A stretch of DNA of 64,000 nt from a virus. The stretch covers positions 32,047 through 96,046 of IMG/VR virus record IMGVR_UViG_3300035438_000341. The stretch is one strand, 5' to 3'. A program made the position numbers and the translations under genes. The notes under the pieces are model-generated. The model saw only the letters and a list, made by a program, of their open reading frames with translations, did no database searches and was not told the DNA's origin. Shown in pieces: positions 10,017 to 51,401 of the stretch; the stretch's first letter is position 1; the number at the start of each line of letters is the position of its first letter.

Positions 10017-10023
10017 CTAAATT

Positions 10024-30947: not shown

Positions 30948-32816
30948 ATGAATCAATTTTGTGAAGCTATTCCATGTCCTGTTATACTAAATGCTACCTG
31001 CGTATTCTACGAAGGAGCTAATCTAGTATGTTCAGGAATCAATACTAATGACACTCTTGAGACCGTCATAGTTAAATTAAATACTAAATTATGTAATGTT
31101 AGTGGCACATCTGGAACCAGTGGGACTAGTGGGACTAGCGGTACATCAGGTAGTAGTGGTGCACAAGGAGATAAATATAGAACAACTAGCAATGATGAAC
31201 TTACATTAGGGCAAGGAGGACAATTAAATGTTGATACATTATTAGCATATACTCCTGGACAATCTATCATTATATCACATAATGCATATAACTATCAAGA
31301 GTGTATTGTTATTGATTATAATCCTTTAATAGGAATATTAAACTTTGAGTTTCCTTCACAAGTTTTTGGATCTGGAACATTTACCTATTGGGACATCAAT
31401 CTAAAAGGTGCTGCTGGTGGTGATGGTTCTTCAGGTAGCTCTGGTACATCTGGAACAACTGGTAGCAGTGGAACGTCAGGGACTAGTGGTTTAGCAGGAT
31501 CAGATGGTTGTCCTGGTACTAGCGGTACTAGTGGTACATCTGGTATTAATGGAACTTCAGGTACAAGAGGTACATCAGGTAGTAGTGGCACAAGTGGGAA
31601 CACTGGTTTAAATGGAAGTAGTGGAACATCTGGTACTTCTGGTACTTCTGGCACTACAGGTACTAGTGGAACGAGTGGAACATCAGGAACTAGTGGAACT
31701 AGTGGAAGTGGTGGTTCTTCTGGGACTAGTGGAACAACAGGTACTAGTGGTACATCAGGAACTTCTGCTACATCAGGTACATCAGGTACAACTGGAACAA
31801 GTGGATCTTCAGGTGTATCACCATCACAAACTCTTCAAGAAGTAACTGATTTAGGAGCTGAAACAACGCATCCTATAATTGCTAATTCATTTATAAAATC
31901 TGGAGGTACAGGAACTAATGTTTTATTAGATGATGGTGATATTATAGCGTTATCTTCTATAGAGAGCGTAACAACTTCTCCTATAACAGCAGATTTAGAG
32001 GTGGGGGGTATTGCAGATCAGCAAATAATTCCAATTGGCACAGACCTACAAGAATTTGCAACATTGCTATTAACTAAAACTTATTATCCAGTATTAACCG
32101 CTCCCACTTTTGCATTAAGTAATAATGCTGGAACAAGAGAGATTGGTAGTTCATCCGCTTTAACTTTAACATTTACTTACAACGATGGTGATGTACTAGG
32201 AAAAACAGTTGGAGGCATTTGGCAACCATCTACTTCACAAGGAGGAAGGTCTGGTGCTGCAATTAGTTATACCATTAATGGTACTACACAAACTGGTAAT
32301 ACGTTGTCAGTTTCTCCAATAATTACCGCAAGTGTAAATACATTTAGTGGAACAGTAACTTATGGAATAGGAATTCAACCATTAGATAGTAAAGGAATAA
32401 ATTATGATGCCCCATATCCAGCAGGAACATCCCCGACAAGATCAACTACTGTACAAGGAATATATCCATACTTTTGGTATAAGTCAGCTTCTCCTATAAC
32501 ATCGGCTGGAATGCAGGCAGCTATCGCGAATGGCACAGCAACTAAAGAAGTTTCATCATCAACAGGAACTATTACAATTGACTTTGATGCAGCAGGAGAA
32601 TACTTAGCATTTGCATACCCTAGCACATCAACAACAAAAACAGTTTGGTATGTGACAGCATTAAGTAACGGAACAATACCAGGAGGAGTATTCGGTGGAG
32701 CTACAACATTACCTTGTAATTCTTCCACAAGTTTATGGTCGAATGTTTCATATAAAATACACGTTACTGCGGGACTAATCACTGAATCACAACCAATGCA
32801 ACTTAGAAACTCTTAA
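30948..32816 (+). CDS. Fibre/decoration protein with (SGT)n Gly-X-Y repeats
   Basis: Cys-rich N-terminal anchor, long Ser-Gly-Thr triplet tracts, beta-rich C-terminus. Confidence 0.7.
   Translation: MNQFCEAIPCPVILNATCVFYEGANLVCSGINTNDTLETVIVKLNTKLCNVSGTSGTSGTSGTSGTSGSSGAQGDKYRTTSNDELTLGQGGQLNVDTLLAYTPGQSIIISHNAYNYQECIVIDYNPLIGILNFEFPSQVFGSGTFTYWDINLKGAAGGDGSSGSSGTSGTTGSSGTSGTSGLAGSDGCPGTSGTSGTSGINGTSGTRGTSGSSGTSGNTGLNGSSGTSGTSGTSGTTGTSGTSGTSGTSGTSGSGGSSGTSGTTGTSGTSGTSATSGTSGTTGTSGSSGVSPSQTLQEVTDLGAETTHPIIANSFIKSGGTGTNVLLDDGDIIALSSIESVTTSPITADLEVGGIADQQIIPIGTDLQEFATLLLTKTYYPVLTAPTFALSNNAGTREIGSSSALTLTFTYNDGDVLGKTVGGIWQPSTSQGGRSGAAISYTINGTTQTGNTLSVSPIITASVNTFSGTVTYGIGIQPLDSKGINYDAPYPAGTSPTRSTTVQGIYPYFWYKSASPITSAGMQAAIANGTATKEVSSSTGTITIDFDAAGEYLAFAYPSTSTTKTVWYVTALSNGTIPGGVFGGATTLPCNSSTSLWSNVSYKIHVTAGLITESQPMQLRNS
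31425..31815 (+). repeat. Coding 9-bp-period repeat encoding (S-G-T/S)n
   Basis: Synonymously diversified units such as ACTAGTGGA, ACATCAGGT and TCTGGT; a shorter tract lies at 31101-31160. Confidence 0.9.
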
Positions 32817-32818
32817 TT

Positions 32819-34717
32819 ATGGCAATAAATTTAACAGACAATATAAGAGTAGGACAACAATTACCTGTTGATAGCAGGTATTTTAATGGACTACTCCCAT
32901 GGGACTCTTTAGTAGCAGTAACCACAGGAATACCAACTGCATTAAGATTTCGTGGTCTCACCGTAAATATTTTAGGGGTTGAGTACTGGTGGGCAGATGG
33001 AATATTAGATGCGCAGTTAGTAATAAAAACAGTAGACGTTACTCTAAACCTTCAAGAGGTAACAGATGAAGGTTCTACAACAACTAATTCTATAACCGCA
33101 AACTCATTTATTAAACAAGGAGGTACTTCTTCTGAAATATTAGCAGCTGATGGAGATATAATAACTGCTGGAAATAATATTACAATTACAAATGGGGAAA
33201 TATCTTCTATTGGTGGTAGTGGAGGAGGAGGTTCAACTGTTAATTATTACTTAAACGGAGGCACAAGTCAAGGCACATTTGGAGGTACAACTTATTACGA
33301 GTTTAGTAAGACTGCAGTAATAGGCACAAGGGTAGACTTTAGTGTAAGTTCTGATGGATATATAGCTTCATTTATAACGGATGTTGCAGACCCATCATTA
33401 TTACTTATACCTATTGGAAATTGGATTATAGAGTTTTACTTTTCAGCTAATTCTGCTGGTGGCTCACCTTCATTCTATGTTGAATTGTATAAAGTAAGTG
33501 TAACCAATGTTTTTACTCTAATTTCAAGTAGTTCCGCTACTCCTGAAGGAATAACAAATGGTGACGTTATTGATGCTTATTTTACAACATTATCAGTTCC
33601 TGAAACAACATTAGATATAAATGATAGATTAGCTATAAGAGTTTTTGTGAATGCTTCAGGAAAAACAATAACACTACATACACAAGATGAAACTCTTTGT
33701 GAAGTACTAACAACTTTCACAACTGGATTAACTGCTTTAAATGGATTACAAGCACAAGTTCAAAATTTTGCAACAGGAACAACAGGAACAGATTTTGCTA
33801 TTAATTCAAGTGGAAGTGTACATACATTTAATTTACCAAGTGCAAGTGCAACCGCAAGAGGTGTAGTTACAACAGCAAGTCAAACATTTGCTGGAGGTAA
33901 GACATTTAGTTCTAATCCTAAAATACCTATAAATGTAGGTAATAGTGGTGCTGGAGCAATAGTAATAGATGATGGAACTGGACAAATAGAAGTGGCAAAT
34001 AATCTTATTTATCCAAACACAAATGAATTAACCTATGTAAAAGGAGTTACAAGTGGAATTCAAACACAATTAAATGCAAAATCACCATTAGCATCACCAA
34101 CCTTTACAGGAACAGTTGTTTTACCAAGTACAACTTCAATAGGAAATGTATCTTCAACAGAAATAGGTTATTTAGACGGGGTAACAAGCGGGATTCAAAC
34201 TTCGCTAGATGGTAAAGTGTCATTAGCAACTACTCAGACTATAACAGCAGCAAAGACATTCTCAAATAACATTACAGCAAGCGCTAATATCATAGGAACT
34301 AATACTCCAGATATAAGTAACGCGTCTTATAATATAATAATAAGAAACGCATCAACTGGTGTTTTTGAAAAATTAGGAGCAACTACTATTCAACCATTAA
34401 TATACAATATATTAATTACTTCAGCAGTAGGTATAACTACACAAACACTAGGGACGAATGGCGGATTAGACTATTCTCAAGATGGTAGAAATGTAATGAT
34501 TGATAATGGTTCAACAGCAATACAAGTCACAGCTACAAATGCTTCAAGTAGTTTTATTGCTAGTTATACCAAGCTAGGCACTGGAATTATAACATTTGCA
34601 TCAAGTCCAGCACCTATAGCTCCTTATGGTACTCAATTAAATGGCAACCCAGGTAGTACAGCTCTATTAACAAAAAACGGAACTACGGTTTATTTATTAG
34701 TGAATAATTTATTATGA
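32819..34717 (+). CDS. Tail fibre-like protein
   Basis: T/S/G-rich; QTFAGGKTFS and QTITAAKTFS fibre motifs; duplicated E..Y..GVTSGIQT.L..K; shares LQEVTD..ANSFIK.GGT with the upstream gene. Confidence 0.7.
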   Translation: MAINLTDNIRVGQQLPVDSRYFNGLLPWDSLVAVTTGIPTALRFRGLTVNILGVEYWWADGILDAQLVIKTVDVTLNLQEVTDEGSTTTNSITANSFIKQGGTSSEILAADGDIITAGNNITITNGEISSIGGSGGGGSTVNYYLNGGTSQGTFGGTTYYEFSKTAVIGTRVDFSVSSDGYIASFITDVADPSLLLIPIGNWIIEFYFSANSAGGSPSFYVELYKVSVTNVFTLISSSSATPEGITNGDVIDAYFTTLSVPETTLDINDRLAIRVFVNASGKTITLHTQDETLCEVLTTFTTGLTALNGLQAQVQNFATGTTGTDFAINSSGSVHTFNLPSASATARGVVTTASQTFAGGKTFSSNPKIPINVGNSGAGAIVIDDGTGQIEVANNLIYPNTNELTYVKGVTSGIQTQLNAKSPLASPTFTGTVVLPSTTSIGNVSSTEIGYLDGVTSGIQTSLDGKVSLATTQTITAAKTFSNNITASANIIGTNTPDISNASYNIIIRNASTGVFEKLGATTIQPLIYNILITSAVGITTQTLGTNGGLDYSQDGRNVMIDNGSTAIQVTATNASSSFIASYTKLGTGIITFASSPAPIAPYGTQLNGNPGSTALLTKNGTTVYLLVNNLL

Positions 34718-38531: not shown

Positions 38532-38552
38532 ACCCTCTATATGAGGGTTTTT
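38530..38552. terminator. Bidirectional intrinsic terminator
   Basis: AAACCCTC-TATAT-GAGGGTTT followed by a T-run, between convergent genes. Confidence 0.7.
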
Positions 38553-41509
38553 ATTTCTGCTATCACCATCTCTGGAGTTATACTAGTCTGACATTCAAAC
38601 TGTCTATCTGTACCTTTGTGAACAGGGCACCAATCCCAATCTCCTTTATCAAACTTATATTGTGGATCATTCCAGCATCCATGACATACATTTGTGTTAA
38701 CTGGTCTATGGCATGAAAACTCATGATCTTTATCAGTGAAGTTAGAGATCATTATCACTGGTACATCTAACCCCCAAGCTAACCAACTTAGTCCACTAGA
38801 TAGTCCTATAAAGAATTCACTTTGTGTTATCCATTCTATTGTACTACCTATTGATTTATCAATTAATGCATCACAATTGTCAAATGGATTATTTTCTAAT
38901 GATACATTTTTCACTATATATCCTTGACCATGTAAGTAATTAATCACTTCTTGCCAAGCTTCTCTGGTCCAGAACTTACACCCAGCTGTACTATTTGTAG
39001 CTATTGTAACTAGTTTATAGTTTGCTTTAAGTCCTGAGTTATGTATTCTAGGTTTGATTTCTTTATAAGGAAGTCCTAGAATATTTGTAGCTGTTTGCTG
39101 AAGAGGAATTGTATTAGGAAGAACAGGTTCTTTATTATCATTATAGAACCAACCAAGTTTATACATTGCATACAAATCATTAACTACAGACCCTGGTTCT
39201 ACAAATTCCAACATTGGATATTCTTTTTCAAATAAGAAGTTCTTATATGTACTTACAATCACTTCACAGTTATGTAGACATCTAAACTCTTCTACATAAG
39301 GCATCCAAGCTATAGTATCACCTAAAGAAGAACTATCAAAAGCTATATAAACTCTTCTACTCTCTAGATTTAGTATGTTATTATACACCTCAACACCATC
39401 CTTATACACTATAGTTTGCCACCTAGTGAAGTATTCTCTGTTAAGTTTTATCCAATGGTTGCACTTTATTGTATCATAATGAACTAACTTTTGTGTTTCA
39501 AAATCATGAAACTCTACATCAAATGTGCTATCACTGGTTCCTGTTATTTCAAGGAATGGTTGTCCAACAAAATTTTGTATGATATTATAATCATTTATAG
39601 GCGTTTTGTTCGGAATAACGGACATTGCTTTCTCATATAATGATATGTGATCTTTAGCAAAATCATCAGTTGTATTAGTTATTGGTAAATCATATTGCTT
39701 ACCATAGTTTAATAACATTTCTAATTGAGTTTTTGGTTCTTTGATATCTACTATGTAATCAGTGAACATATCTTTATACTGAGGAAGATTTCTAGCAAGG
39801 ATAGGTAACCCATATCCAATAGCTTCTCTAAGTACAAGAGGATTACATTCCCACGTGCTGTTAAACATAAATGCATCTGCAGCTTTCATAAATCTATATA
39901 TGTCATCTTTTTCTCCCCATACAGTAACATTATCAGGTAGATTTTTCATTAGTGGTTTCCAATAGTCTTCAAAGTTCCCAGCTTGATTACCTATAAAGTG
40001 AAACTCTACATATGGTAGAGATCTAGCTATCTCAATTCCTTCTCCTTGATTCTTTCCTTTGGTCCATAGTCCTACATTAACTACATGCTTTTTTCTACTA
40101 TCCATTCCTAGATATGCTTTACTGAACAGTTTGTCTTTTGGAGAAACAATCTGTTTGTCTATAGGGAACTCAATCACTTGTTTGTAACCATCTAGGTTAG
40201 CAAATGTATCTAAGTGATAAGGACTGCAGAAAGCATATGCATCAGGTGTAAATATCTTCTCAGAAGGATTGAAAGATACATCATGACATGTCTCAACTAT
40301 TCTATATTTTCTATCAGGAGAATACAATCTTGTCATCATCTTTCTATCTAGTCTCTCAGACATCTCATCTATATGTATGATGTCTGGTTTAAACTCTTCT
40401 ACAGCTTTGAAGATTCTCATCTTATCTTCATTCAGTGTATATAAGCCTGTAAGCTTTATAATCTCATCTCTCTGTACAACATAATCTTTGCTGTAACATT
40501 GATATTCTACCACTTGAATAGATACATTTGGCAGAGTTTGCAACGCTTGTATTCTTTTAAGAAGGAATGCAGGCATACCACCTGTAGATAGGTGAGGAGC
40601 AACAAATAATATTTTTAGTTTAGACATTGGTTTAGACATTTTAGACATTAGTTTAGACATTTGTACTGGATCTTTCTCTCCATGTAGGAATAGTAATTGT
40701 TCTTTACACTCTGGTAACCTGAACCAATTGTTAACATGTTTACCCCAGTTATCTTCATTATATATCCTATCTAGCTTGTCAAGACCAGCATTAGTGTATA
40801 TATAAGGAAGACCCTGATGTATATTATATTTCCACAATAGCACATTTACTATTGTCTCTTCATGATAGGGAGCATAGATTTGTGGATTCTCAAGTATAGT
40901 GGGATGAGTGCACATCCAATACCACTCATCTAGAAAGTTAATAGTGTTCTTACCAGCCACAAAGTAACCAGTTTGTCTATATCTCTCTCTCACATATTGA
41001 TTTACATTGAATAATTCACATGCTGGATGTTCTAGTGTAGTGGAGAGATCTTCTTTACTATCAGCTCCTCCTCTTCCATTGTTATGCAGATAGTCATATA
41101 TACCTTCTACAAAATATGGATGTCCACATTCAGTGTTGTACATATCAAATATACTATCTACATACTGAGTAGCTACACTGTCAGAATCTACGTAACATAT
41201 TGTATTAGCAAAGTGCTCAAGAGCATGCTTAACTATAAGAGGCCTTTTTATTAATAGATTGTATATTCTTGAATCATCTCTATCTATATAAACTTCTTGT
41301 GATACATCTTTAATATCACACTCCCAGTATACAGTATTAGCTCCAGGAACCTCTCTGTGATCATTTAACAGGTACACTGTGATTGGTATATTGCTAAACT
41401 GTTGAATGCTCTCTACAGCCATGCATACAGTGCTGTAATAAGATGCATTTGCATATAAAACGTACATTTTATCTGCTTTTATATGTTGATACGTATAACT
41501 ATCGGACAT
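38537..41509 (-). CDS. Tri-domain glycosyltransferase: GT-A (DxD) + GT4-like GT-B + autotransporter O-heptosyltransferase (TibC/Aah-like)
   Basis: YVDSD; LFVAPHLSTGG..KGKNQ..ECNPLVLREAIGYG.P; SLGDTIAW..FIGLSSGLSWLAW..CHGCW..WCP.H..FEC. The ATG at 41509 is preferred because a promoter box overlaps the TTG at 41530. Confidence 0.85.
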   Translation of the reverse strand: MSDSYTYQHIKADKMYVLYANASYYSTVCMAVESIQQFSNIPITVYLLNDHREVPGANTVYWECDIKDVSQEVYIDRDDSRIYNLLIKRPLIVKHALEHFANTICYVDSDSVATQYVDSIFDMYNTECGHPYFVEGIYDYLHNNGRGGADSKEDLSTTLEHPACELFNVNQYVRERYRQTGYFVAGKNTINFLDEWYWMCTHPTILENPQIYAPYHEETIVNVLLWKYNIHQGLPYIYTNAGLDKLDRIYNEDNWGKHVNNWFRLPECKEQLLFLHGEKDPVQMSKLMSKMSKPMSKLKILFVAPHLSTGGMPAFLLKRIQALQTLPNVSIQVVEYQCYSKDYVVQRDEIIKLTGLYTLNEDKMRIFKAVEEFKPDIIHIDEMSERLDRKMMTRLYSPDRKYRIVETCHDVSFNPSEKIFTPDAYAFCSPYHLDTFANLDGYKQVIEFPIDKQIVSPKDKLFSKAYLGMDSRKKHVVNVGLWTKGKNQGEGIEIARSLPYVEFHFIGNQAGNFEDYWKPLMKNLPDNVTVWGEKDDIYRFMKAADAFMFNSTWECNPLVLREAIGYGLPILARNLPQYKDMFTDYIVDIKEPKTQLEMLLNYGKQYDLPITNTTDDFAKDHISLYEKAMSVIPNKTPINDYNIIQNFVGQPFLEITGTSDSTFDVEFHDFETQKLVHYDTIKCNHWIKLNREYFTRWQTIVYKDGVEVYNNILNLESRRVYIAFDSSSLGDTIAWMPYVEEFRCLHNCEVIVSTYKNFLFEKEYPMLEFVEPGSVVNDLYAMYKLGWFYNDNKEPVLPNTIPLQQTATNILGLPYKEIKPRIHNSGLKANYKLVTIATNSTAGCKFWTREAWQEVINYLHGQGYIVKNVSLENNPFDNCDALIDKSIGSTIEWITQSEFFIGLSSGLSWLAWGLDVPVIMISNFTDKDHEFSCHRPVNTNVCHGCWNDPQYKFDKGDWDWCPVHKGTDRQFECQTSITPEMVIAEIKTLI

Positions 41510-41527
41510 AGGTTTGATTTTTAAAAA

Positions 41528-41535
41528 CAAAGATA
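41528..41535 (-). promoter_or_regulatory. -7 promoter box (TATCTTTG) for the glycosyltransferase gene
   Basis: TAnnTTTG on the minus strand, 18 nt upstream of ATG 41509. Confidence 0.6.
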
Positions 41536-42888: not shown

Positions 42889-43334
42889 TGGTAACAAGTG
42901 CACAAGCGTTAAAGAAATACGGAGACCCAACTAAAGAATCTGGTATGACATTATGGGATGTACCAAAAGAATTAGAAATTGGTGTACTCCCTAAGAGATT
43001 ATATTGTAACAAAGATATGATCCTGCCATTAACAAAAGCTTTTAAAAATCTCATATCTACAGGATGTGTTAAAGAATTAAAAACTTGGGATGGATGTTTC
43101 AATATAAGAAAGAAAAGAGGACTTGCATCAATGTCTTTACATTCTTGGGGTTGTGCTGTGGATTTAAACGCTTCAGATAATGTTCTTGGTAAATCTTATT
43201 CTGAGTTACTGAAGTTAGGAAAAAAACCTTTTTCTGAAGAATTTTTAAATTGTTTTAGACTAGCAGGGTTTGATGCTGGAGGAGATTGGACCACTCGTCC
43301 TGATAGAATGCACTTTCAATTAAAAAATATTTAA
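42888..43334 (+). CDS. Endolysin, peptidase M15 family
   Basis: Zn-binding motif SLHSWGCAVD (SxHxxGxAxD) and C-terminal D.MHFQ. Confidence 0.9.
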   Translation: MVTSAQALKKYGDPTKESGMTLWDVPKELEIGVLPKRLYCNKDMILPLTKAFKNLISTGCVKELKTWDGCFNIRKKRGLASMSLHSWGCAVDLNASDNVLGKSYSELLKLGKKPFSEEFLNCFRLAGFDAGGDWTTRPDRMHFQLKNI

Positions 43335-43921
43335 TGAAATCAGGAATTTATATAATAAAAAATACTATAAATAATAAGGTTTACATTGGGCAATCTAATA
43401 ACATTCAACTTAGATTAAATGCTCACAAAAGAATGCTTAGAAATAATATTCATGGTAATATAAAACTACAAAGATCTTATAACAAACAACCAGAAGGGTC
43501 TTTTAGTTTTGAAGTATTAGAATATTGTGAATGTGATTTTTTAAATTCTAAAGAAATTTACTACATTGCTGAACATGATTCAGTTTATAATGGATACAAT
43601 ATGGAATTTGGAGGAACTACAGCTAAAGTTATATCTCCTGAACTTAGACTTAAATTATCGCTTTCTCATCTTGGAAAACCAAGTCCTAAAAAAGGAATAA
43701 AAACTGGAAAACCTTCATGGAACTCTAATAAAAAAGGAGTACAGTGTAGTTCACGTAGAATAAAAGTAAAAGTTATAAATAAAGAAACTAAAGAAGTGAT
43801 TGGTATTTTTGAATCTAAACAAGCTTTTTGTGTTTTTATAAATTATAAGTCTAAAAACTTTAAGAAAATAAGTGATTCAGTGACACATTTAGGAAAATAT
43901 GAATTAATTAACATTATCTAA
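43334..43921 (+). CDS. GIY-YIG homing endonuclease
   Basis: SGIYIIKN..KVYIGQS..RLNAH; NUMOD3-like KLSLSHLGK. Confidence 0.9.
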   Translation: MKSGIYIIKNTINNKVYIGQSNNIQLRLNAHKRMLRNNIHGNIKLQRSYNKQPEGSFSFEVLEYCECDFLNSKEIYYIAEHDSVYNGYNMEFGGTTAKVISPELRLKLSLSHLGKPSPKKGIKTGKPSWNSNKKGVQCSSRRIKVKVINKETKEVIGIFESKQAFCVFINYKSKNFKKISDSVTHLGKYELINII

Positions 43922-44388
43922 TGAGAAGATGTGATGAGATATATGAAATAGTAACTGTTTACTATCCAACTAGCTGTTTAAATACAACTAAGTGTTCAAC
44001 AACTACATCTACATCAACAAGTACTTCCACTTCCACTAGTACTAGTACATCAACCTCTACATCTACATCTACAAGCACTACCAGTACATCAACTACAGCT
44101 ATACCAACCACTACTACCACCACTACAGTTCGAATGGTTTGGACTTATACTTTTCGATATATTACATGTGATACATGTGCTAATATAGGTGGTGGAGGAT
44201 TTGGTAATTCTCAAGAATTAATAGTTGGAAACTATTATACCACTCCAAGTGTACCTTATAAAATATTAATTCTTGGATTTGTGTCACTTAATCCTGGCAC
44301 TCCAGGAGAATATATTTTAACCTATAGTGGTGCAACTACTTGTCAAGGGATTAGTTGTCCTACTACAACAACAACAACTACAATATAA
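43921..44388 (+). CDS. Mucin-like Ser/Thr-rich, Cys-containing protein
   Basis: About 44-residue (ST)n/Tn tract and C-terminal CPTTTTTTI. Confidence 0.75.
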   Translation: MRRCDEIYEIVTVYYPTSCLNTTKCSTTTSTSTSTSTSTSTSTSTSTSTSTSTTSTSTTAIPTTTTTTTVRMVWTYTFRYITCDTCANIGGGGFGNSQELIVGNYYTTPSVPYKILILGFVSLNPGTPGEYILTYSGATTCQGISCPTTTTTTTI

Positions 44389-44389
44389 A

Positions 44390-44527: not shown

Positions 44528-44614
44528 TCTTTTTGATTATTTTAATTCACTAGTAATCATGCATATTTGCATAAATTGTGATATTTTTGTAACTATAAAA
44601 TAAACCAACTACAT

Positions 44615-45631
44615 ATGAAAGATTTAAAATTCATCCAAGCATGTCCAAGTGATGTATATTACACATGGCAAGTTCATTTATGGCTTGAGAGCTTAAGGAA
44701 TATTGGACATAGCGATAAAGCTATATCTGTTATATTCACACCCAAGGGAAGAGAGAATAGAGACAAATGGAAACAGATAGAAACCCTCTATCCAGAATCA
44801 GAGTTTCATTATTACAATGATGAAGACAATTTAAATCAACTGTTAGGAATATATATTCCTGTACTAAGACCATATGTACTTTGGAAACATTTCAAAGCTA
44901 ATCCAGAACTAAGTGATAAAGCTATATTCTATTGTGACTCAGACATTCTCTTTACTAAAGATTTCAATGTAGATGAGTTTACACAAGATGATGTTAATTA
45001 CTTGTCAGACACAAACAGTTACATCAATGCTACATATTTTGATAGCAAAGAAAGAGATGTTCTTCCAGAGAAACTAGAAGAATACAAAACAAGAGACATT
45101 CTTGGAGAAATAGCTAGTGTCATTGGTATAGATAGAGAGACTTGTGAAGCTAACAACCTACACTCAGGAGGAGCACAATATCTATTAAAGAATGTAGATG
45201 GTGAGTTCTGGAGTAAGGTGATGAATGATTGCATTCTTATTAGAACCTATTTACAAACAGTGAATAGAGATTTCTTTAAAGATGAGAACACAGGATATCA
45301 ATCATGGTGTGCAGATATGTGGGCTGTTCTTTGGAACCTATGGTTTAGAGAACAAGAAACAAAGGTGATTCCTGAACTAGCTTTCACTTGGGCTACAGAT
45401 CCTATATCTAAACTAGACAGTCACACAATCTTTCATAATGCAGGAATAACAGGAACATCAATGAATGGATATCCTTGTTTCTACAAAGGAAAGTATCATC
45501 AAGGAACTGATCCTACAAAAGATCCTCACTTAGATGATGTATTAAACAATATAGAATCACAGAAGTATTGTACATGGTTCTATGCAAACGAACTCAACAA
45601 AATAAAACAGAAATATACACTTAATTATTAA
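44615..45631 (+). CDS. GT-A glycosyltransferase resembling protein O-glycosyltransferases (HPAT/SERGT-like)
   Basis: YYTWQ..L..S; YIP..RP; FYCDSDILF (DxD); GGAQY; WCADMWA. Confidence 0.65.
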   Translation: MKDLKFIQACPSDVYYTWQVHLWLESLRNIGHSDKAISVIFTPKGRENRDKWKQIETLYPESEFHYYNDEDNLNQLLGIYIPVLRPYVLWKHFKANPELSDKAIFYCDSDILFTKDFNVDEFTQDDVNYLSDTNSYINATYFDSKERDVLPEKLEEYKTRDILGEIASVIGIDRETCEANNLHSGGAQYLLKNVDGEFWSKVMNDCILIRTYLQTVNRDFFKDENTGYQSWCADMWAVLWNLWFREQETKVIPELAFTWATDPISKLDSHTIFHNAGITGTSMNGYPCFYKGKYHQGTDPTKDPHLDDVLNNIESQKYCTWFYANELNKIKQKYTLNY

Positions 45632-45648
45632 TAACAAAAACAATTATC

Positions 45649-45852
45649 ATGAGTAACAAGAGAGACCTTAAGGCCTATGTAAGATTCGATGGATCTGGCA
45701 GAATTGTAGCAGGAAGTTTAGTCCTAAGAAGAAGTAAGCCAAAGGTGGGCAAATGGCAAGAGATAACAGCATATGAGTGTTGTAATCCAACTACTAGTAC
45801 AACAACTACAGCAGCACCTACAACTACTACCACAACAACCCCTGCACCTTAA
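45649..45852 (+). CDS. Small protein with a C-terminal poly-Thr/Pro tail
   Basis: Ends CCNPTTSTTTTAAPTTTTTTTPAP. Confidence 0.75.
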   Translation: MSNKRDLKAYVRFDGSGRIVAGSLVLRRSKPKVGKWQEITAYECCNPTTSTTTTAAPTTTTTTTPAP

Positions 45853-45861
45853 TATTAAATT

Positions 45862-46563: not shown

Positions 46564-46564
46564 T

Positions 46565-47716
46565 ATGCCTACATTTATAAAAGCTGGATTTTGGGAACAA
46601 ACATGTAAGAATTGTAAAGGATACAATGGTTGGTTAAACCTTGATCAATTTACTGGTCAATCAGGTACCTCTGGAACTAGTGGATCTTCAGGTCCTCAAG
46701 GTGCTCAAGGAGTACAAGGAACACAAGGAATACAAGGGGTCTCTGGAACATCTGGTAGCTCTGGTGTTGCTGGTGATAGATATCAAACTACATCTACAAC
46801 AACTTTTGAATTAGGAGTGAGTACAACTCTTACTGTTGAACCAGGATTAGCTTATTCAACAGCACAAGATGTACTTATATCGTACAATCTTGCTAATCAC
46901 CAAGTGAGTCAGGTAGTAAGTTATGATCCTTTAACAGGTGTTTTAGTTATTGGACCTCCTACCACTGTAACTGGATCAGGTACATATAGTGTATGGACAA
47001 TTAATTTAGATGGTGCTGCTGGAGGAGATGGATCTTCTGGTACTTCAGGGATTAATGGTACATCAGGAACTACAGGAGCACAGGGTGTTCAAGGATTACA
47101 AGGTGTTGCTGGAAGTAACGGTACCAGTGGAACTACTGGAACTAGCGGAACATCTGGTACAAGTGGAACTAGTGGATCTTCAGGAATAAGTAATGCTACA
47201 GCATCTTATGGTTTATATGCTCAAACAGCTGATTCAACCCCTGTAACTAACACTGCTGTAGAAACAACAATAATAGGATCAGGAGTTGGTACATTAACTG
47301 TTCCTGCAAATGCATTTTCTATTGGAGATTCTTTTACATGTGCGTTAGATGGTATACTTTCTTGTACGAGTTCCTCTACAGTGCATATTAGAATAAAAAC
47401 AGGAGCTGGTGTACTTCTTGCAGATACTGGAATAATTGATTTAGCTGCAGCAACTAATAAAAATTGGATAATAAATTTATACTTTACAATTAGAACATTG
47501 GGAGCAACTACTGTTGCATCTGTTTCATCTGGAGGATTATTTTCTTATATTAGAAATGGAGGAACACAATTTGAAGGTTATAATTTAAATACAGTTAATA
47601 GCACTACATTTGATACTACTATAATTAATACATTAGAAATCACTGCACAATGGGATACAGCTATTATAGATAATTCAATAATAACAAGAAACTTTACATT
47701 AACTAAAGTATATTAA
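46565..47716 (+). CDS. Fibre/decoration protein with SGT and collagen-like GxQ repeats
   Basis: SGTSGT and QGAQGVQG tracts; GD.Y.TTS..W.INL.GAAGGDGSSG domain shared with the 30948 gene. Confidence 0.7.
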   Translation: MPTFIKAGFWEQTCKNCKGYNGWLNLDQFTGQSGTSGTSGSSGPQGAQGVQGTQGIQGVSGTSGSSGVAGDRYQTTSTTTFELGVSTTLTVEPGLAYSTAQDVLISYNLANHQVSQVVSYDPLTGVLVIGPPTTVTGSGTYSVWTINLDGAAGGDGSSGTSGINGTSGTTGAQGVQGLQGVAGSNGTSGTTGTSGTSGTSGTSGSSGISNATASYGLYAQTADSTPVTNTAVETTIIGSGVGTLTVPANAFSIGDSFTCALDGILSCTSSSTVHIRIKTGAGVLLADTGIIDLAAATNKNWIINLYFTIRTLGATTVASVSSGGLFSYIRNGGTQFEGYNLNTVNSTTFDTTIINTLEITAQWDTAIIDNSIITRNFTLTKVY

Positions 47717-47726
47717 AACTTGCAAG

Positions 47727-47755
47727 TGTAACAAATTCTTTCTACATTTGTTACA
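47727..47755 (+). promoter_or_regulatory. -7 promoter box (TACATTTG) embedded in a 10-bp inverted repeat
   Basis: TGTAACAAAT-N9-ATTTGTTACA upstream of ATG 47783. Confidence 0.65.
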
Positions 47756-47782
47756 ATTATAAACCAATTAAATATTTACATT

Positions 47783-48037
47783 ATGGCAGAGTATAATCCT
47801 AACGCTAGGTATACATGGACTCCTGAAGACACATTTCAATTATCAGGACAAGAATTTGGTCTAATCCTTAATATGGTTAGATCTTATTTAGCATCAGAAG
47901 ATGCAGCACGTTTTCAATTAATGAATCAAACTAACGAAGTTATTGAGAAAATCATGAAAGCTGGTGTTGAAGCTGATGTTATCAAAGAAGTTCCTGAGAC
48001 TCCTACAGAAGCCCTAGAAGCTGAAGTGATCCAGTAA
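47783..48037 (+). CDS. Hypothetical acidic protein
   Basis: ORF downstream of the promoter box. Confidence 0.7.
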   Translation: MAEYNPNARYTWTPEDTFQLSGQEFGLILNMVRSYLASEDAARFQLMNQTNEVIEKIMKAGVEADVIKEVPETPTEALEAEVIQ

Positions 48038-48096
48038 ATCACAACATACCTGTTGGGTGACGAATAACAGGTGTTCTCGAACAAAAGCACTTCTCT

Positions 48097-48300
48097 ATGA
48101 GAATATACGAACCAAAGAATAGAATAGATGTTATAACACCAAAGGGAGAGGGGGTAATATGGCTAGTGACTGATTATGGTCATGAGACAGATACCATCTA
48201 TACAATTATTATTAATACAACAGGTGAGATGTGGCAATACTCTCACAAAGATATAATCGTTAAACCCAATATAACATTTAAACGCTATGGCAACAATTAA
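48097..48300 (+). CDS. Hypothetical protein
   Basis: 67-aa ORF, V.TPKG.G..W...DYG motif. Confidence 0.65.
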   Translation: MRIYEPKNRIDVITPKGEGVIWLVTDYGHETDTIYTIIINTTGEMWQYSHKDIIVKPNITFKRYGNN

Positions 48301-48706
48301 AAAGGCACAGAATGGAGTAACTAAAGATAGTACAGATTACTTCAAAGGTAGATCAAAAGATATGGCTATAAAATCTCTTTATGCAGAAGCAAAAGGAGAT
48401 AAAAAACTATCTAATATCTATATGGATGCTGCAAGTAAATCTTCTTCAGATGCTTCTAGACAAGCTAATAAAGGAAAAAAAGGATATGATAAAAATGGTT
48501 ATCCTATCAAAATGAAAAATGGTGGAAGTCTATCTGGACTTAAAGCCTCCAACAAAAGAGTTGGTCCTGTAGATCCTAAAGGAGCATTCACAAAGGTACA
48601 AAAGAAAACATTAGCTGGTGCTAAAGGAAAAGCTTCTCTTACCAAAGACAAACAACTTGGTGCTACAAAAATGGCTAAGTGTGGAACTAAAATGTCTAAG
48701 AAATAA
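48287..48706 (+). CDS. Basic Lys-rich protein (putative internal virion protein)
   Basis: KKAQNG and MKNGG motifs. Confidence 0.7.
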   Translation: MATIKKAQNGVTKDSTDYFKGRSKDMAIKSLYAEAKGDKKLSNIYMDAASKSSSDASRQANKGKKGYDKNGYPIKMKNGGSLSGLKASNKRVGPVDPKGAFTKVQKKTLAGAKGKASLTKDKQLGATKMAKCGTKMSKK

Positions 48707-48864
48707 TGGCAACCGATAAAAAGTGGATGCAAAAAGCTGCAGCTTCTATTAAGAAGCGTGGCACTGCTGGTAAATGTACACCAATCACTAAACCTGGTTG
48801 TACTGGTAAGGCCAAAACTCTTGCTAAAACTTTCAAAAAAATTGCTAAAAAAAATAAGAAATAA
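48706..48864 (+). CDS. Small basic protein (52 aa)
   Basis: Not in the ORF track. TAATG-coupled on both sides; MATDKKWMQKA..LAKTFKKIAKKNKK. Confidence 0.75.
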   Translation: MATDKKWMQKAAASIKKRGTAGKCTPITKPGCTGKAKTLAKTFKKIAKKNKK

Positions 48865-49703
48865 TGGCAAAGATAACTAAAGTTCCTGATGGTCCTCTTG
48901 TTAAGAAGAAAGGTCCATTCAAAGGAAGCACATTAAAAGCTGGTGGTAAGATTAAGAAAGCTCAGACTGGAGAATTTCTTACAAAAGAAGATGGTAAATA
49001 CACTTCTACTAAAAAAGTAAAAACTAAAAATGGTCCTAGATATTATCAAGGAAAATCTCCTAATATGTCTTTTGCTAGAGAATTAGCTTTTGATAAAGCA
49101 CTTAAGATTAATGATTCTATTCCTAAAGCAAAACTTTCTGCAAGAGCATTAGAAGTGATGAACCAAAAGAATGGTGGTAAAATCAAAAAAGCAGCTAATG
49201 GTACTACCACTACACAAACTACTACACCACCTGCCAAAAAATCTTGGAATCAAATGTCTGTTGCAGAAAGAACATCAAAAAGAGATGAAGTAAAAGCAAA
49301 AGAAGGAAGAGAAGGATGGAGTAAGTATATGGATTCTACACTGACCGCAGACTTTAAAAAAGGAGCTGAAAGACGTGGATTAACTGTTGAACAATATGCT
49401 AAAAAAGTAAAAAACGATGATAAAGTAAAATTTTCAGAAGTTCCAGGAGGATGTGGTTTTGGGAAAGAAAGAACAGGCTGTGCTCGTTCAGAAGCTCAGC
49501 GGGAGAGATGGAATAAACAAGAAAGAAATAGAAAGAACGGAGGTCCTATTAAAAAAGCTAAATCTGGCGCAATGATTAAACGTGCTGATGGTTCTATGTC
49601 TAAACCTGGTCTTTGGGATAATATCAGAAAGAATAAAGGATCTGGTAAGAAACCTACAGCAGCTATGTTGAAACAAGAAAAGAAAATTAAAGCTAAGAAA
49701 TAA
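48864..49703 (+). CDS. Basic Lys-rich protein with repeated KxGG-KIKKAxxG modules
   Basis: Three copies of K.GG.IKKA..G; C-terminal GLWDNIR..K.PT. Confidence 0.7.
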   Translation: MAKITKVPDGPLVKKKGPFKGSTLKAGGKIKKAQTGEFLTKEDGKYTSTKKVKTKNGPRYYQGKSPNMSFARELAFDKALKINDSIPKAKLSARALEVMNQKNGGKIKKAANGTTTTQTTTPPAKKSWNQMSVAERTSKRDEVKAKEGREGWSKYMDSTLTADFKKGAERRGLTVEQYAKKVKNDDKVKFSEVPGGCGFGKERTGCARSEAQRERWNKQERNRKNGGPIKKAKSGAMIKRADGSMSKPGLWDNIRKNKGSGKKPTAAMLKQEKKIKAKK

Positions 49704-49972
49704 TGGCAACTGCAGCATGGACACGTAAAGAAGGAAAGAATCCTTCTGGCGGATTAAACAAGAAAGGTGTAGCTTCATATAGAGCTGCTAATCCTGGTAG
49801 TAAATTAAAAATGGCTGTTACTACTAAACCTTCTAAACTTAAACCTGGAAGTAAGTCTGCTAACAGGAGAAAATCATTTTGTGCTAGAATGGGTGGTGTA
49901 AAAGGACCTATGAAGAAACCAAGTGGTAAACCTACACGTAAAGCTCTTGCTTTAAAAAAATGGAACTGTTAA
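49703..49972 (+). CDS. Basic phage protein (DUF6321-like)
   Basis: GKNPSGGLN.KG..SY..NPGSKLK..RRKSFCARM..WNC. Confidence 0.65.
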   Translation: MATAAWTRKEGKNPSGGLNKKGVASYRAANPGSKLKMAVTTKPSKLKPGSKSANRRKSFCARMGGVKGPMKKPSGKPTRKALALKKWNC

Positions 49973-49993
49973 CAACTAAACAATAAATATATT

Positions 49994-50332
49994 ATGACAA
50001 CAATGAAAAAAGCACAGGGCGGTGCTAAAGCTACTAAAAAACCCAAAACTGCTTCTCAGAGAATTGGAGACTTGACATTAAGAGATGTTAAAAATTCTGC
50101 TGAAACAGCTCTTAATCTTTCTACTCTTGGTGGGTATGGAGCTATAAAAAAAGGGGTTAAAAAGTTAACTGGTATGAAATCTGGTGGAGCTGTTAAGAAA
50201 GCTAAATCTGGTGGTTCATTTCCTGATCTCAATAAAGATGGAAAGGTTACTAAAGCAGACATCCTTAAAGGACGTGGTGTTATAGCTAAATCAGGAGCTA
50301 AAATGAAGAAATGTAAAACTGGTTGCAAATAA
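49994..50332 (+). CDS. Basic protein with an EF-hand-like motif
   Basis: FPDLNKDGKVTKADIL; KSGG repeats. Confidence 0.65.
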   Translation: MTTMKKAQGGAKATKKPKTASQRIGDLTLRDVKNSAETALNLSTLGGYGAIKKGVKKLTGMKSGGAVKKAKSGGSFPDLNKDGKVTKADILKGRGVIAKSGAKMKKCKTGCK

Positions 50333-50493
50333 TGACTTCTGGTAAAGCAAAAAAATCAGGAGCACCAAGAATGGCTCCAAAGGTTGGAATTCCTAGAAAG
50401 GATAAACCTTTTTCAAAGACTAAGTCAATGGATGATAAAGCTATTAGAACTTCTCCGCAACAACCAATGAAGCAAAAAAGATTATCAAAATAA
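50332..50493 (+). CDS. Small basic protein (53 aa)
   Basis: Not in the ORF track. TAATG-coupled to the upstream gene and ends at the terminator. Confidence 0.6.
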   Translation: MTSGKAKKSGAPRMAPKVGIPRKDKPFSKTKSMDDKAIRTSPQQPMKQKRLSK

Positions 50494-50526
50494 AAAAAGC
50501 CCTTCTATTTCTAGAGGGGCTTCTTC
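50492..50526. terminator. Bidirectional terminator at the convergence of the two transcription blocks
   Basis: A7-GCCCTTCTA-TTTC-TAGAGGGGC-TTCTT. Confidence 0.8.
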
Positions 50527-50528
50527 AT

Positions 50529-51401
50529 TTAATAGAATAGATTCAAATAATCTTTACTATTTCCCCAATAAGGATCATGTTCTCTTACATCAGTAGTTGA
50601 ATATATACTGAAATGTGAGGTGAAATGTCCTCCATGGTTAACATGTACTGCAGAGTTTGCACATTCCCATTTTAATCTAGTTATCTTTGGGATCTGTGGC
50701 TCAATCAATCCACTGTTTGTAACTAATGCATTTGCTAATATAGATTCACAATGTGCAATTGCCTCATCAAACCTCATTGTCATTTGATGAAATGGCTCAT
50801 GCTTAATTGGAACTCCTTGCCAACCATCTCTATTCAATCCCATGTAATTCATATTTGTAATTACAGTGCCTGATGCTATATCAGGATAATCAAAATATCC
50901 TTCTGGATATAATACATCATGTTCCAAGAAAGAAACTGTCTCATATTGATTAAGTTCTCTTGCTATATACAACAGTTGCATTATTTGCAACAGTTGATTT
51001 AGATGAGATGTGGTTTTAGTCCATGCTATGTACTCAACAAAAGGATTCTCTGGCTCAATGTTCCACATACAGGTTAGTATGTCTGCTTTACCTTTGGCTG
51101 CTTTATTGATGCTGTTTAATGAAGCCCTGATAGCAGGGAATGTTTTTGGATTTGTGTTGTTTGAATAGAACACACCAAGTTTTCTATTTATTGAAGGAGG
51201 ATATACAAATAATCCACCTTCTTTAGTTGAATATTCTTTACCATCAATATTAACTACAAGAGTCTTTGCTGTACCTATACTAGGATCACCAATAATGTTA
51301 TTATCAGAACGCAAAATTAAAGAGCCATTTCTGACTCTTAATTTTACTATTTCTGTACAATCAACACCTCCATAAGATGCGCTACGAATATTCATTACCA
51401 C
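50529..51401 (-). CDS. Lectin-like N-terminal domain fused to a GT-A (GT2-like) glycosyltransferase domain
   Basis: IRSASYG..D.T..V..N..IGDP..G..K.L.V (SUEL/DUF3395-like), then FLEHDVLYP..YF and late H.NH. Confidence 0.6.
   Translation of the reverse strand: MVMNIRSASYGGVDCTEIVKLRVRNGSLILRSDNNIIGDPSIGTAKTLVVNIDGKEYSTKEGGLFVYPPSINRKLGVFYSNNTNPKTFPAIRASLNSINKAAKGKADILTCMWNIEPENPFVEYIAWTKTTSHLNQLLQIMQLLYIARELNQYETVSFLEHDVLYPEGYFDYPDIASGTVITNMNYMGLNRDGWQGVPIKHEPFHQMTMRFDEAIAHCESILANALVTNSGLIEPQIPKITRLKWECANSAVHVNHGGHFTSHFSIYSTTDVREHDPYWGNSKDYLNLFY

Follow-up and report, generated by a model that had tools for sequence, protein, structure and literature searches.

The stretch analysed here (hereafter the window, 64,000 nucleotides) comes from an uncultured phage that TerL comparison places as a distant relative only of the crAss-like phages. 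Its TerL is 27% identical to those of crAss-like gut phages, 32% to those of Cellulophaga phages phi4:1 and phi17:2, and 40% to that of a Leptolyngbya phage, and among its relatives by TerL and by the 338-aa glycosyltransferase (GT) described below are phages that infect Flavobacteriia (Cellulophaga, Flavobacterium, and Chryseobacterium). The original prediction had spoken of a crAss-like virion; by TerL, the relationship is apparently only a distant one. ORFs of 4475 and 1596 aa bear a putative resemblance to the crAss cargo region. Megablast of the region 38000‒52000 against cultured phages returned no match. A dNMP kinase homologue lies at 54471‒55181. The following features are relevant to the analysis.

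19‒2865, plus strand: C-terminal part of a 1792-aa virion structural protein (phrog_37948 'virion structural protein', 3.3e-59)
30948‒32816, plus strand: 622-aa collagen-like fibre (Pfam Collagen 2.5e-19; tail-fibre PHROGs; 8 + 40 Gly-X-Y triplets)
32819‒34717, plus strand: 632-aa fibre protein (ORF and blastp; one segment in common with the 622-aa fibre)
34714‒38016, plus strand: 1100-aa fibre/adhesin-like protein (N-terminal Fib_succ_major, PF09603, 2.3e-27; phrog_10356 'virion structural protein')
38537‒41530, minus strand: 997-aa three-domain GT protein, its ORF read from a TTG
40601‒41530, minus strand: N-terminal domain of the 997-aa protein, residues 1‒310 (DxD-like YVDSDSV motif; Atlas lead to GT8)
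39671‒40600, minus strand: GT4-type GT-B domain, about residues 311‒620 of the 997-aa protein (Pfam Glycos_transf_1; phrog_2170 glycosyltransferase)
38546‒39532, minus strand: Aah/TibC-type (BAHT) O-glycosyltransferase domain, residues 667‒995 of the 997-aa protein (PDB 4rap; TIGR04414)
43921‒44388, plus strand: 155-aa protein (44% Ser/Thr; a 34-residue (ST)n tract; two T7 runs, one of them C-terminal)
44615‒45631, plus strand: 338-aa glycosyltransferase with a GT8-like GT-A fold (phrog_4417, 1.4e-55)
45649‒45852, plus strand: 67-aa protein (conserved 46-aa N-domain, then TTSTTTT-AAP-T7-PAP)
46565‒47716, plus strand: 383-aa small collagen-like fibre (Pfam Collagen 5.9e-15; 14 + 20 triplets)
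50529‒51401, minus strand: 290-aa protein, an N-terminal beta domain and a GT-A fold in the predicted model; accessory gene

The three GT genes (38537‒41530, 44615‒45631, and 50529‒51401) are located where the original prediction had put them, and the database form of the 997-aa protein (990 aa) starts at the same ATG, at 41509. Four of the five GT domains that had been counted are confirmed, while the fifth, at the N-terminus of the 997-aa protein, is only probable. All three GTs lack membrane segments, and no Gtr-type partner genes were found for them. The 632-aa fibre protein received no Pfam or PHROG family assignment.

Twelve ORFs contain Thr/Ser tracts, and every one of them lies in the plus-strand structural, fibre, and lysis block. 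Counted over the whole genome, runs of at least six Thr number 13, against 0.1 expected from shuffled proteins, and none lies in the minus-strand block. The tracts previously noticed at 30948, 46565, 43921, 45649, and 2131‒2670 are all present, and five more tract-bearing ORFs lie upstream of the window. The Thr runs of this phage mostly have exactly seven Thr residues and are bracketed by Pro, Ala, or Val; the 1792-aa protein carries three of them (STTTTTT, TTSTTTT, and CNP-T7) at about 2131‒2670, and counterparts of the 67-aa protein in relatives have tracts of 7‒45 residues and variable C-terminal domains. Such runs are carried by ten or more proteins whose genes lie among the structural ones; most of these proteins are fibre-like or of unknown role. 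The major capsid protein bears no tract. No virion annotation came out of PHROG searches with the poly-Thr proteins, which are assigned to the particle by inference from their domains and the position of their genes.

The predicted model of the 338-aa GT (pLDDT 97) adopts a GT8-like GT-A fold, which superposes best with glycogenin (VIA Z 14.7, rmsd 3.5 over 221 residues), followed by LgtC (Z 14.2), GlyE, and UGGT. Asp108 and Asp110 of the DxD metal site are invariant in 61 diverse family members. Glycogenin and GlyE are the closest solved folds (VIA Z 13‒15) and have the DxD site as well, but the 338-aa GT stands at about 10% sequence identity to them and lacks a Pfam GT8 match. GlyE decorates a Ser-rich repeat adhesin in the pneumococcal PsrP pathway. 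Pfam searches of the 338-aa GT found nothing at E 0.1, including Glyco_transf_8 (PF01501), a family without a match anywhere in the genome although the control search matched 6 reference genomes, and a PDB sequence search gave chance-level matches only. Two GT domains had been thought to resemble protein-modifying families. The likeness to TibC/Aah holds, whereas that of the 338-aa GT to the plant/algal HPAT/SERGT enzymes (CAZy GT95/GT96) is neither confirmed nor refuted. Its sole support is a lead from an Atlas cluster near the 338-aa protein, in which 10% of members carry Pfam HPAT; HPAT (PF23452) matched 0 of 61 diverse 338-family members at E 0.01. Genome searches for HPAT and DUF7164 were also empty, but they carry little weight because their controls matched nothing either.

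GT8-like folds include LPS enzymes such as LgtC, and since these score equally well, the fold of the 338-aa GT does not decide its acceptor. LPS and polysaccharide synthesis makes frequent use of GT4, GT8-like, and GT9-like folds. The phage GTs could instead act on host envelope glycans (LPS/core, capsule, or teichoic-acid-like polymers), for example in blocking superinfection or changing the receptor, with the tracts as mere linkers or shafts. Serotype-changing phage GTs are well known (PMC12619734).

The gene of the 338-aa GT is present in all ten complete close relatives, and a poly-Thr gene, or a pair of them, always follows. Homologues were located in 12 lineages of cultured phages, where the gene directly follows the major tail or major head gene. 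In 10 of these lineages, the head and/or tail proteins end in T6‒T10 tags, the tagged proteins being major head and tail proteins; the other two, ENFP1 and LP65, have no tract within 6 kb. Such tags are absent from all six phages that have homologous tail proteins but no such GT, two of which share a genus with a GT-positive phage (exact hypergeometric p 0.0015 for the GT‒tag association, phylogeny ignored). In a distant branch of the family, poly-Thr proteins were found at 16 of 19 loci, their genes mostly terminating right where the GT gene starts; for one distant member used as a query in the locus search, no DNA was found. In siphoviruses, the gene is flanked by the major tail gene on one side and the tail chaperone genes on the other, a position that action on envelope glycans leaves unexplained. 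We propose that the 338-aa GT, a core gene of this phage group, is a poly-Thr O-glycosyltransferase.

The model of the 290-aa protein (pLDDT 89) has SpsA, TarP, and Bogt6a as GT-A fold neighbours (Foldseek E about 1e-5, TM about 0.4), and its Glu160-His161-Asp162 is invariant. Sequence searches yielded no Pfam, PHROG, or NCBIfam match, chance-level matches only in the PDB, and no tblastn match in cultured phages, and the gene is absent from 15 close relatives. It lies in a minus-strand non-structural block, which would suit action on the host envelope, as would the presence of LgtC, TarP, and WbbM among the structural neighbours of the GTs. In two other phages (L251 and L254), however, a counterpart directly follows a 338-family GT gene behind poly-S/T proteins, and the 290-aa protein is a possible second step of the poly-Thr module.

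The three domains of the 997-aa protein are supported to different degrees. Residues 1‒310 probably form a GT-A domain, but this rests on weak support and is not confirmed: hhalign aligned the domain with the 338-aa family around the DxD motif at a probability of 29% and with the 290-aa family at 6%, BLASTP against the 338-aa protein gave nothing significant, no Pfam sequence match was obtained, and PDB sequence matches were at chance level. The domain is missing from the homologues in two relatives (G009 and G012). In the GT4 part, Glycos_transf_1 matches residues 474‒593 (3.5e-11; 43.4 bits vs a gathering score of 26.4); the weak NCBIfam matches of this part are glycolipid and LPS enzymes, as expected for an envelope-directed enzyme. 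The C-terminal domain matches TibC (PDB 4rap) at E 4.3e-50 and the TIGR04414 equivalog at 265 bits vs a cut-off of 200, with residues 667‒995 covering profile positions 26‒373 of 374. Judged by its sequence, it is a true member of the Aah/TibC family. LPS heptosyltransferase models reach only 16‒18 bits on it. The best-characterised GT domain belongs with protein-glycosylating enzymes rather than with LPS or DNA enzymes, as had been foreseen.

TibC, the model member of the bacterial autotransporter heptosyltransferases (BAHT), glycosylates Ser residues of repetitive passenger domains in the cytoplasm and has the catalytic Asp110, the sugar-binding Thr226, Lys230, Arg286, and Trp305, and a four-Cys iron finger (PMC4358343). 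The catalytic Asp738 of the 997-aa protein (Asp110 in TibC) and the residues at the positions of Thr226, Lys230, and Trp305 are invariant in 112 phage homologues, as are Cys949, Cys952, Cys968, and Cys980, which align to the iron-finger Cys339, 342, 358, and 370; iron binding itself is inferred only. Three of TibC's four sugar-binding positions are thus kept, along with its catalytic base and the Cys residues of its iron finger. The position of Arg286, on the other hand, is Thr here and never Arg in the 112 homologues (Thr 105, Ala 4, Ile 2, and Val 1), and that of Pro300 is Ser, as in Aah. Since Arg286 is never Arg and a search of this genome and four relatives for heptose-pathway genes, by way of the GmhA type (PF13580), came back empty, the sugar donor of the TibC-type enzyme is unknown, and the name heptosyltransferase may be unsuitable. 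The gene arrangement resembles TibC‒TibA and Aah‒AIDA-I of E. coli (TIGR04414; PDB 4RAP/4RB4), where a true homologue likewise lies beside a highly repetitive Ser-rich protein (PMC4358343). Unlike in those systems, no autotransporter is present, the neighbour being a Gly-Ser/Thr collagen-like phage fibre, and the domain is fused to a GT4 and a further domain.

The (SGT)n fibres at 30948 and 46565 had been described as mucin-like, which is not borne out: their repeats are Gly-X-Y collagen repeats by Pfam Collagen and tail-fibre PHROGs. Against a PF01391 gathering score of 27.2, the 622-aa and 383-aa fibres reach 69.2 and 55.2 bits, and trimer formation is inferred only. The triplets of the 622-aa fibre are Ser/Thr-rich and devoid of Pro, while the X/Y positions of the 383-aa fibre are less Ser/Thr-rich, and homologues of the latter also occur in relatives without a TibC-like gene. 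The TibC-like gene is accessory. At the fibre slot compared between relatives, the position after the 1596-aa protein, a giant Pro-free Gly-Ser/Thr collagen-like fibre is found in all nine assessable relatives with the gene and in none of the ten complete relatives without it, and the N-terminal 49 residues of the fibre are kept while the shaft is swapped. Among wider viral loci with enough flank, 40 of 48 have a convergent Ser/Thr collagen-like ORF (45‒574 triplets, at least 60% Ser/Thr at X/Y, about 0% Pro, and a median of 1.7 kb away); 7 to 8 of the 48 have none. The pairing recurs in the cultured Microcystis phage Mel-JY01, and in the huge-phage record LR756504 no collagen-like ORF lies within 12 kb of the TibC-like gene (code 11 only). 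A small nucleotidyltransferase-like ORF beside the TibC-type gene in two relatives was not counted because its neighbours are also found in TibC-negative genomes. We propose the 622-aa fibre as the acceptor of the Aah/TibC-type enzyme.

The correlation between GTs and Ser/Thr-tract proteins is tight, both within the phage group and across unrelated phages. The co-occurrence counts are uncorrected for shared ancestry, and linkage inside a variable fibre cassette could reflect hitch-hiking rather than function. Action on envelope glycans nevertheless does not explain why, across numerous lineages, the GTs come and go in step with poly-Thr tags or Ser/Thr collagen fibres, and it fits poorly with a TibC-type domain above the equivalog cut-off of a protein-glycosylating family and with GTs that have neither membrane segments nor Gtr-type partners. 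We consider it unlikely.

Co-variation with protein repeats is also left unexplained if the GTs glycosylate hydroxymethylated phage DNA for evasion of restriction. This is a frequent role of phage GTs (PMC12619734), and the dNMP kinase homologue would be compatible with it. However, no thymidylate-synthase-like hydroxymethylase, and with it no hydroxymethylase for DNA glycosylation, was found in the genome or four complete relatives (the control matched 10 of 14 reference genomes), and PDB and fold searches revealed no GT similar to T4-type DNA glucosyltransferases. DNA glycosylation is very improbable here.

The tracts could also be modified by a general O-glycosylation system of the host, with the phage enzymes trimming, extending, or diversifying the glycans or serving another purpose. 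Thr/Ser-rich linkers of secreted proteins are generally known to be host-glycosylated in several bacterial groups, the relatives by TerL and 338-aa GT include Flavobacteriia phages, and several GT domains resemble extenders (GT4). Known general O-glycosylation in Bacteroidota is, however, extracytoplasmic, whereas phages assemble in the cytoplasm, and the tag‒enzyme pairing is also found in phages of Firmicutes, Actinobacteria, and cyanobacteria, hosts that share no such system. Moreover, enzymes of the TibC family start protein glycosylation themselves, and do so in the cytoplasm (PMC4358343). Reliance on the host machinery is quite unlikely in our judgement.

The enzyme folds and family membership, the intact catalytic residues, the tracts, and their genomic co-variation with the GTs are observed. 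Since two of the GTs are each tied, in many phages, to a single type of particle-protein repeat, a sugar coat on the particle is probable. We consider it probable that enzymes of the phage itself attach O-glycans to its particle proteins while these are in the host cytoplasm, through two separate enzyme-plus-acceptor modules, in place of the one initiating and extending pathway originally envisaged. In module A, the soluble 338-aa GT8-like enzyme, with its metal-binding Asp108-x-Asp110, would put a sugar on Thr runs that seem to act as linkers or tails of particle proteins, and the 290-aa GT-A-fold protein may attach a further sugar. In module B, the Aah/TibC-type domain would initiate O-glycosylation at the X/Y Ser/Thr residues of the 30948‒32816 fibre, and the fused GT4 domain, probably together with the N-terminal GT-A-like domain, would extend the glycan. 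The benefit could be stabilisation of the triple helix, shielding from proteases or antibodies, or adhesion. The role of the tracts as acceptors is an inference, as are the identity of the sugars, the sequence of the steps, and the benefit. The overall idea of virion O-glycosylation is supported by in silico tests, but it stays an inference since no glycan has been observed; for neither this phage nor any relative is there biochemical proof in the form of a glycan, mass-shift, or proteomic datum.

To our knowledge, mycobacteriophages are the only phages whose particles have been shown experimentally to bear glycans. There, virion glycans affect antibody recognition. Virion glycosylation is reported for Che8, Corndog, Myrna, and others (Freeman et al. 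2023, Cell Host Microbe, as cited in PMC12619734), with phage GTs encoded among structural genes, Ser/Thr-bearing extensions on particle proteins as acceptors, and modification in the cytoplasm before or during assembly. The present phage likewise has a GT gene amid its structural genes and Ser/Thr-bearing extensions on predicted particle proteins, but the acceptors are predicted and the timing is inferred in our case, without experimental demonstration. The systems differ in their hosts, in their enzyme families (here GT8-like phrog_4417 and Aah/TibC fused to GT4), and in their acceptors. Here these would be a collagen-like fibre and fixed T7 runs, which mostly serve as linkers inside fibre and accessory proteins, with the major capsid protein untagged.

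Glycosylated bacterial collagen-like proteins are exemplified by BclA of the Bacillus anthracis exosporium, and Thr glycosylation stabilises collagen helices without hydroxyproline ('sweet is stable', invertebrate collagen, Bann et al. 2000), as cited in PMC3368898. The 622-aa fibre likewise has hydroxyproline-free Gly-X-Y repeats that expose Thr/Ser at X/Y, the O-glycan sites in those proteins, but its X/Y positions are almost only Ser/Thr, without Pro, and its glycosylation is only inferred. The enzymes that glycosylate BclA are, as far as we know, not of the Aah/TibC family. Literature and full-text searches for poly-threonine tags and for collagen-like fibres with heptosyltransferase in phages retrieved no description of either module.

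These modules may be instances of portable cassettes of an acceptor tag plus a transferase (a T7 tag with a GT8-like enzyme, or a Pro-free Gly-Ser/Thr collagen shaft with an Aah/TibC multi-enzyme) that are spread across many tailed-phage lineages and exchanged with fibre shafts, so that close relatives wear different glycan coats and virion glycosylation is widespread and modular; this extension could equally prove right or wrong. Cultured carriers make module A testable in Enterococcus phage phiFL1A, VPE25-like phages, Lactococcus phage 1706, and Chryseobacterium phage MA9V-3, and module B in Microcystis phage Mel-JY01. The T7 tag or the Gly-Ser/Thr repeat, each with its enzyme, could also become a tool for cytoplasmic protein glycosylation. 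Should the inferred function of the modules hold, phages with Bacteroidota-type, Firmicutes, actinobacterial, and cyanobacterial hosts would commonly wear sugar coats, predictable from sequence by simple tags and variable between near-identical phages, which would bear on phage stability, adsorption, immune clearance in therapy, and the interpretation of cryo-EM densities.

The window carries two proposed glycosyltransferase (GT) modules. Module A consists of a 338-aa GT and poly-Thr tracts, and module B of a 997-aa protein and a Gly-Ser/Thr collagen-like fibre. A third GT gene encodes a 290-aa protein.

GT genes and adjoining tract proteins (window coordinates)
30948-32816: collagen-like fibre, 622 aa (module B)
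38537-41530, minus strand: 997-aa ORF (module B); 990 aa from the ATG at 41509, the start given in the original prediction
44615-45631, plus strand: 338-aa GT (module A)
45649-45852, plus strand: 67-aa poly-Thr protein (module A)
50529-51401, minus strand: 290-aa protein

The window spans bases 32047-96046 of an IMG/VR virus record, which is 96 kb long and 83% complete, with a GC content of ~32%; complete close relatives are 111-119 kb. A plus-strand block starts at the terminase, portal and major capsid genes, all upstream of the window, and takes in very large ORFs (4475 and 1596 aa) before the fibre, lysis and small-protein genes, which extend to ~50.3 kb. It is followed by a minus-strand block with PhoH, dNMP kinase, a UvsX-like recombinase, endonuclease VII and homing endonucleases. 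The terminase shares 40% identity with its counterpart in a Leptolyngbya phage, 32% with those of Cellulophaga phi4:1 and phi17:2, and 27% with those of gut crAss-like phages; its matches also include Flavobacterium, Azobacteroides and IAS phages. Judged from these identities, the phage belongs to the wider crAss-like assemblage as a distant member, without established membership of Crassvirales.

Four small Lys/Gly-rich proteins at 48287-50332 share motifs such as GGKIKKAQ and KKAKSG and are kept in relatives; their function is unknown, and they are perhaps internal or DNA-binding proteins. Homing-endonuclease-like genes (at least three GIY-YIG and two HNH) are scattered in the genome, one of them between the genes for an endolysin-like M15 peptidase and an (ST)n protein.

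Homing-endonuclease-like genes (window coordinates)
5960-6583
43334-43921
52153-52761
53410-53808
60724-61452

The middle part of the 997-aa protein is a GT4 domain (Pfam Glycos_transf_1, 3.5e-11). Its C-terminal 330 residues match E. coli TibC (E 4e-50) and score 265 bits on TIGR04414, the NCBI equivalog model for Aah/TibC bacterial autotransporter heptosyltransferases (BAHT; cut-off 200), with only 16-18 bits on LPS heptosyltransferase models. Of the residues that the TibC structure paper names (PMC4358343), the HMMER alignment shows catalytic Asp110, Thr226, Lys230 and Trp305 (TibC numbering) and all four iron-finger cysteines to be kept, and the same positions are invariant across 112 phage homologues. 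The position of TibC Arg286 is never Arg in these homologues, and that of Pro300 is always Ser, as in Aah. The N-terminal 310 residues contain a DxD-like motif (YVDSDSV), and a putative GT-A fold for them has weak support from a comparison with the 338-aa family (hhalign probability 29%) and an Atlas lead. Whole-protein homologues carry additional methyltransferase, GT25, pyruvyl-transferase or other GT domains, consistent with enzymes building decorated glycans.

The stretches initially described as (SGT)n are collagen repeats of the Gly-X-Y type, with matches to tail-fibre PHROGs and to Pfam Collagen (2.5e-19 and 5.9e-15). As an accessory gene, the one for the 997-aa protein is present in only four of ten complete relatives, and it occurs complete, lacking the N-terminal domain or divided among separate genes. 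Side by side, five gene-positive genomes have one or more collagen-like ORFs in the slot after the 1596-aa protein, with runs ranging from 48 triplets in all (this phage) to more than 200; in five complete gene-negative genomes this slot holds a non-collagen fibre or none, and one such fibre keeps the same 49-residue N-terminus as the collagen-like fibre. In a second sample of records, anchored on the 1596-aa protein, the TibC-type gene accompanies four of the six Ser/Thr collagen-like fibres, the other two lying on contigs that end too early to judge, and is found in none of the 21 records that lack such a fibre. The pairing over the assessable records as a whole is 9/9 vs 0/10.

The fibre in this slot has a similar N-terminus of ~49 residues, and its shaft is exchanged, collagen-like or not, in step with the TibC-type cassette.

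Fibres with the retained N-terminus
window 30948-31100: this phage
9638-11341 (L115): relative G008

The association extends beyond these relatives. A convergent ORF of 45-574 triplets, at a median distance of 1.7 kb, is present at 40 of the 48 viral loci examined in which a TibC-type domain is flanked by at least 6 kb of sequence; the X/Y positions of these ORFs are at least 60% Ser/Thr and essentially free of Pro. The cultured Microcystis phage Mel-JY01 has an 805-aa ORF (149 triplets) 1.7 kb before a 1227-aa TibC-domain protein. In its record (PP395634.1, 635-3052), an annotated minus-strand CDS (739-2298) crosses this plus-strand ORF, whose Gly-X-Y triplets are uninterrupted; the CDS is probably a mis-annotation of the collagen-like fibre gene. 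Small, less Ser/Thr-rich collagen-like proteins (e.g. at 46565) are found with and without the TibC-type enzyme. A small CTP_transf_like (nucleotidyltransferase) ORF adjoins the TibC-type gene in two relatives (G007:C1:74123-74260 and G010:C1:93807-93935); its neighbours in this cluster are also found in genomes that lack the TibC-type gene, and no link is established.

Threonine runs are a feature separate from the collagen-like repeats. The genome encodes 13 runs of at least six Thr, vs 0.1 expected from shuffled proteins. They are spread over 12 ORFs, all 13 on the plus-strand structural, fibre and lysis block and none on the minus-strand block.

Threonine-run sites
window 2131-2670
window 43921-44388
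window 45649-45852
genome 16686-25371

Eleven of the 13 runs are exactly seven residues long. Pro usually precedes the seven-Thr runs and Ala, Val or Ile follows them, and relatives show length patterns of [7,7] and [7,7,7]. The underlying DNA is codon-diverse and not a fresh microsatellite, and several runs form linkers preceding Fib_succ_major or Lcl_C domains. As far as sequence can tell, the seven-Thr run looks like a fixed unit rather than a variable low-complexity stretch. A 383-aa protein encoded three genes after the major capsid gene (genome 13948-15099) ends in the Thr/Ser tail TTTTTST-AAP-STTTTSST-NIP-stop, similar to the tags on the head and tail proteins of Firmicutes phages.

The 338-aa protein belongs to phrog_4417, labelled 'unknown function' in PHROG. 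Its model, from a 61-sequence alignment in which D108 and D110 are invariant, has a GT8-like GT-A fold (pLDDT 97); the HPAT likeness suggested earlier was not recovered, as the Pfam HPAT family was not detected. The gene is present in all ten complete genomes of the phage group, whose major capsid proteins share at least 94% identity, and in every case one or two members of a single gene family come next (60 to 516 aa; 45649-45852 in the window and L101-L118 in relatives). This family keeps a 46-residue N-domain; behind it come a Thr/Ser tract, 7-45 residues long, and in some members a C-terminal domain that varies. Its members look like modular proteins for display or decoration.

Outside the group, tblastn found 338-family homologues in 77 cultured phages of Enterococcus, Lactobacillus, Lactococcus, Staphylococcus, Clostridium, Arcanobacterium and Chryseobacterium. 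In the 12 cultured lineages examined, the gene is the immediate downstream neighbour of the major tail or major head gene, and in ten of them T6-T10 tags end head and/or tail proteins. The Lactococcus 1706 protein ends ...TTTTTTTTTHHD-stop, and the tail protein of Enterococcus phage phiFL1A, whose GT gene is gp51, has a 21-residue Thr/Ser tail. Lacticaseibacillus phage R3.3 is a carrier as well, whereas phiJL-1 of its genus has no such GT. Six control phages with homologous tail proteins but no 338-family gene, two of which share a genus with a carrier, have no tag; their tail proteins stop just short of the point where the carriers' tags start (10/12 vs 0/6; exact p = 0.0015, phylogeny ignored). 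In a more distant branch of the family, poly-Thr proteins occur at 16/19 loci, and most of their genes stop where the GT gene begins. Glycosylation of the tracts by the host cannot be excluded, but it fits poorly with an enzyme-tract pairing that holds across hosts of four phyla.

In two phages, the major tail gene overlaps at its 3' end with an out-of-frame ORF of (T7-VEP/VKP)n repeats, which may be a frameshift extension tagging a fraction of tail subunits.

(T7-VEP/VKP)n ORFs
4965-5210: Staphylococcus phage PT1-4
5672-5926: Arcanobacterium phage TPWB06

The model of the 290-aa protein combines a beta domain with a GT-A fold (pLDDT 89), and its E-H-D motif is invariant. The protein is missing from 15 close relatives; it has 838 metagenome homologues and, where present, lies in one and the same slot. 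Two phage contigs that are more distant show poly-Ser/Thr protein genes followed by a 338-family gene and, directly after it on the same strand, a 290-aa homologue. A second step in module A is a lead for this protein, no more. Modification of the host envelope by the 290-aa protein or the GT4 domain is not excluded, although it would leave unexplained both the co-variation of GTs with tracts and the position of the 338-family gene inside tail modules.

We propose that the 338-aa enzyme would O-glycosylate the Thr runs, and that the Aah/TibC domain would start glycans on Ser/Thr of the collagen-like shaft, to be extended by the fused GT4 domain and perhaps by the N-terminal domain of the 997-aa protein. 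This proposal is made because both enzyme sets are soluble (no membrane segment was found in the 338-aa, 290-aa or 997-aa protein), particle assembly is cytoplasmic, and cytoplasmic hyperglycosylation of repetitive, Ser-rich substrates is a known activity of TibC-type enzymes (PMC4358343). The acceptors, sugars, step order and benefit of both modules are all inferred. Thr glycosylation is an established stabiliser of a proline-free Gly-Ser/Thr helix, and among bacteria BclA offers a precedent for collagen-like proteins that carry glycans (PMC3368898). DNA as the substrate of these enzymes is unlikely: a hydroxymethylase search that matched 10/14 reference genomes as a control gave nothing in this genome or in four complete relatives.

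That phage GTs decorate particle proteins is already known from mycobacteriophages, as is the action of BAHT enzymes on repeats, but the enzyme families, acceptor types and host range differ here. No published description of module A or B was found in the part of the literature searched. This window contributes a lead that ties the 290-aa protein to module A, the apparently fixed seven-Thr unit, a natural on/off comparison among near-identical genomes, and the occurrence of both modules together in one phage of the crAss-like assemblage.
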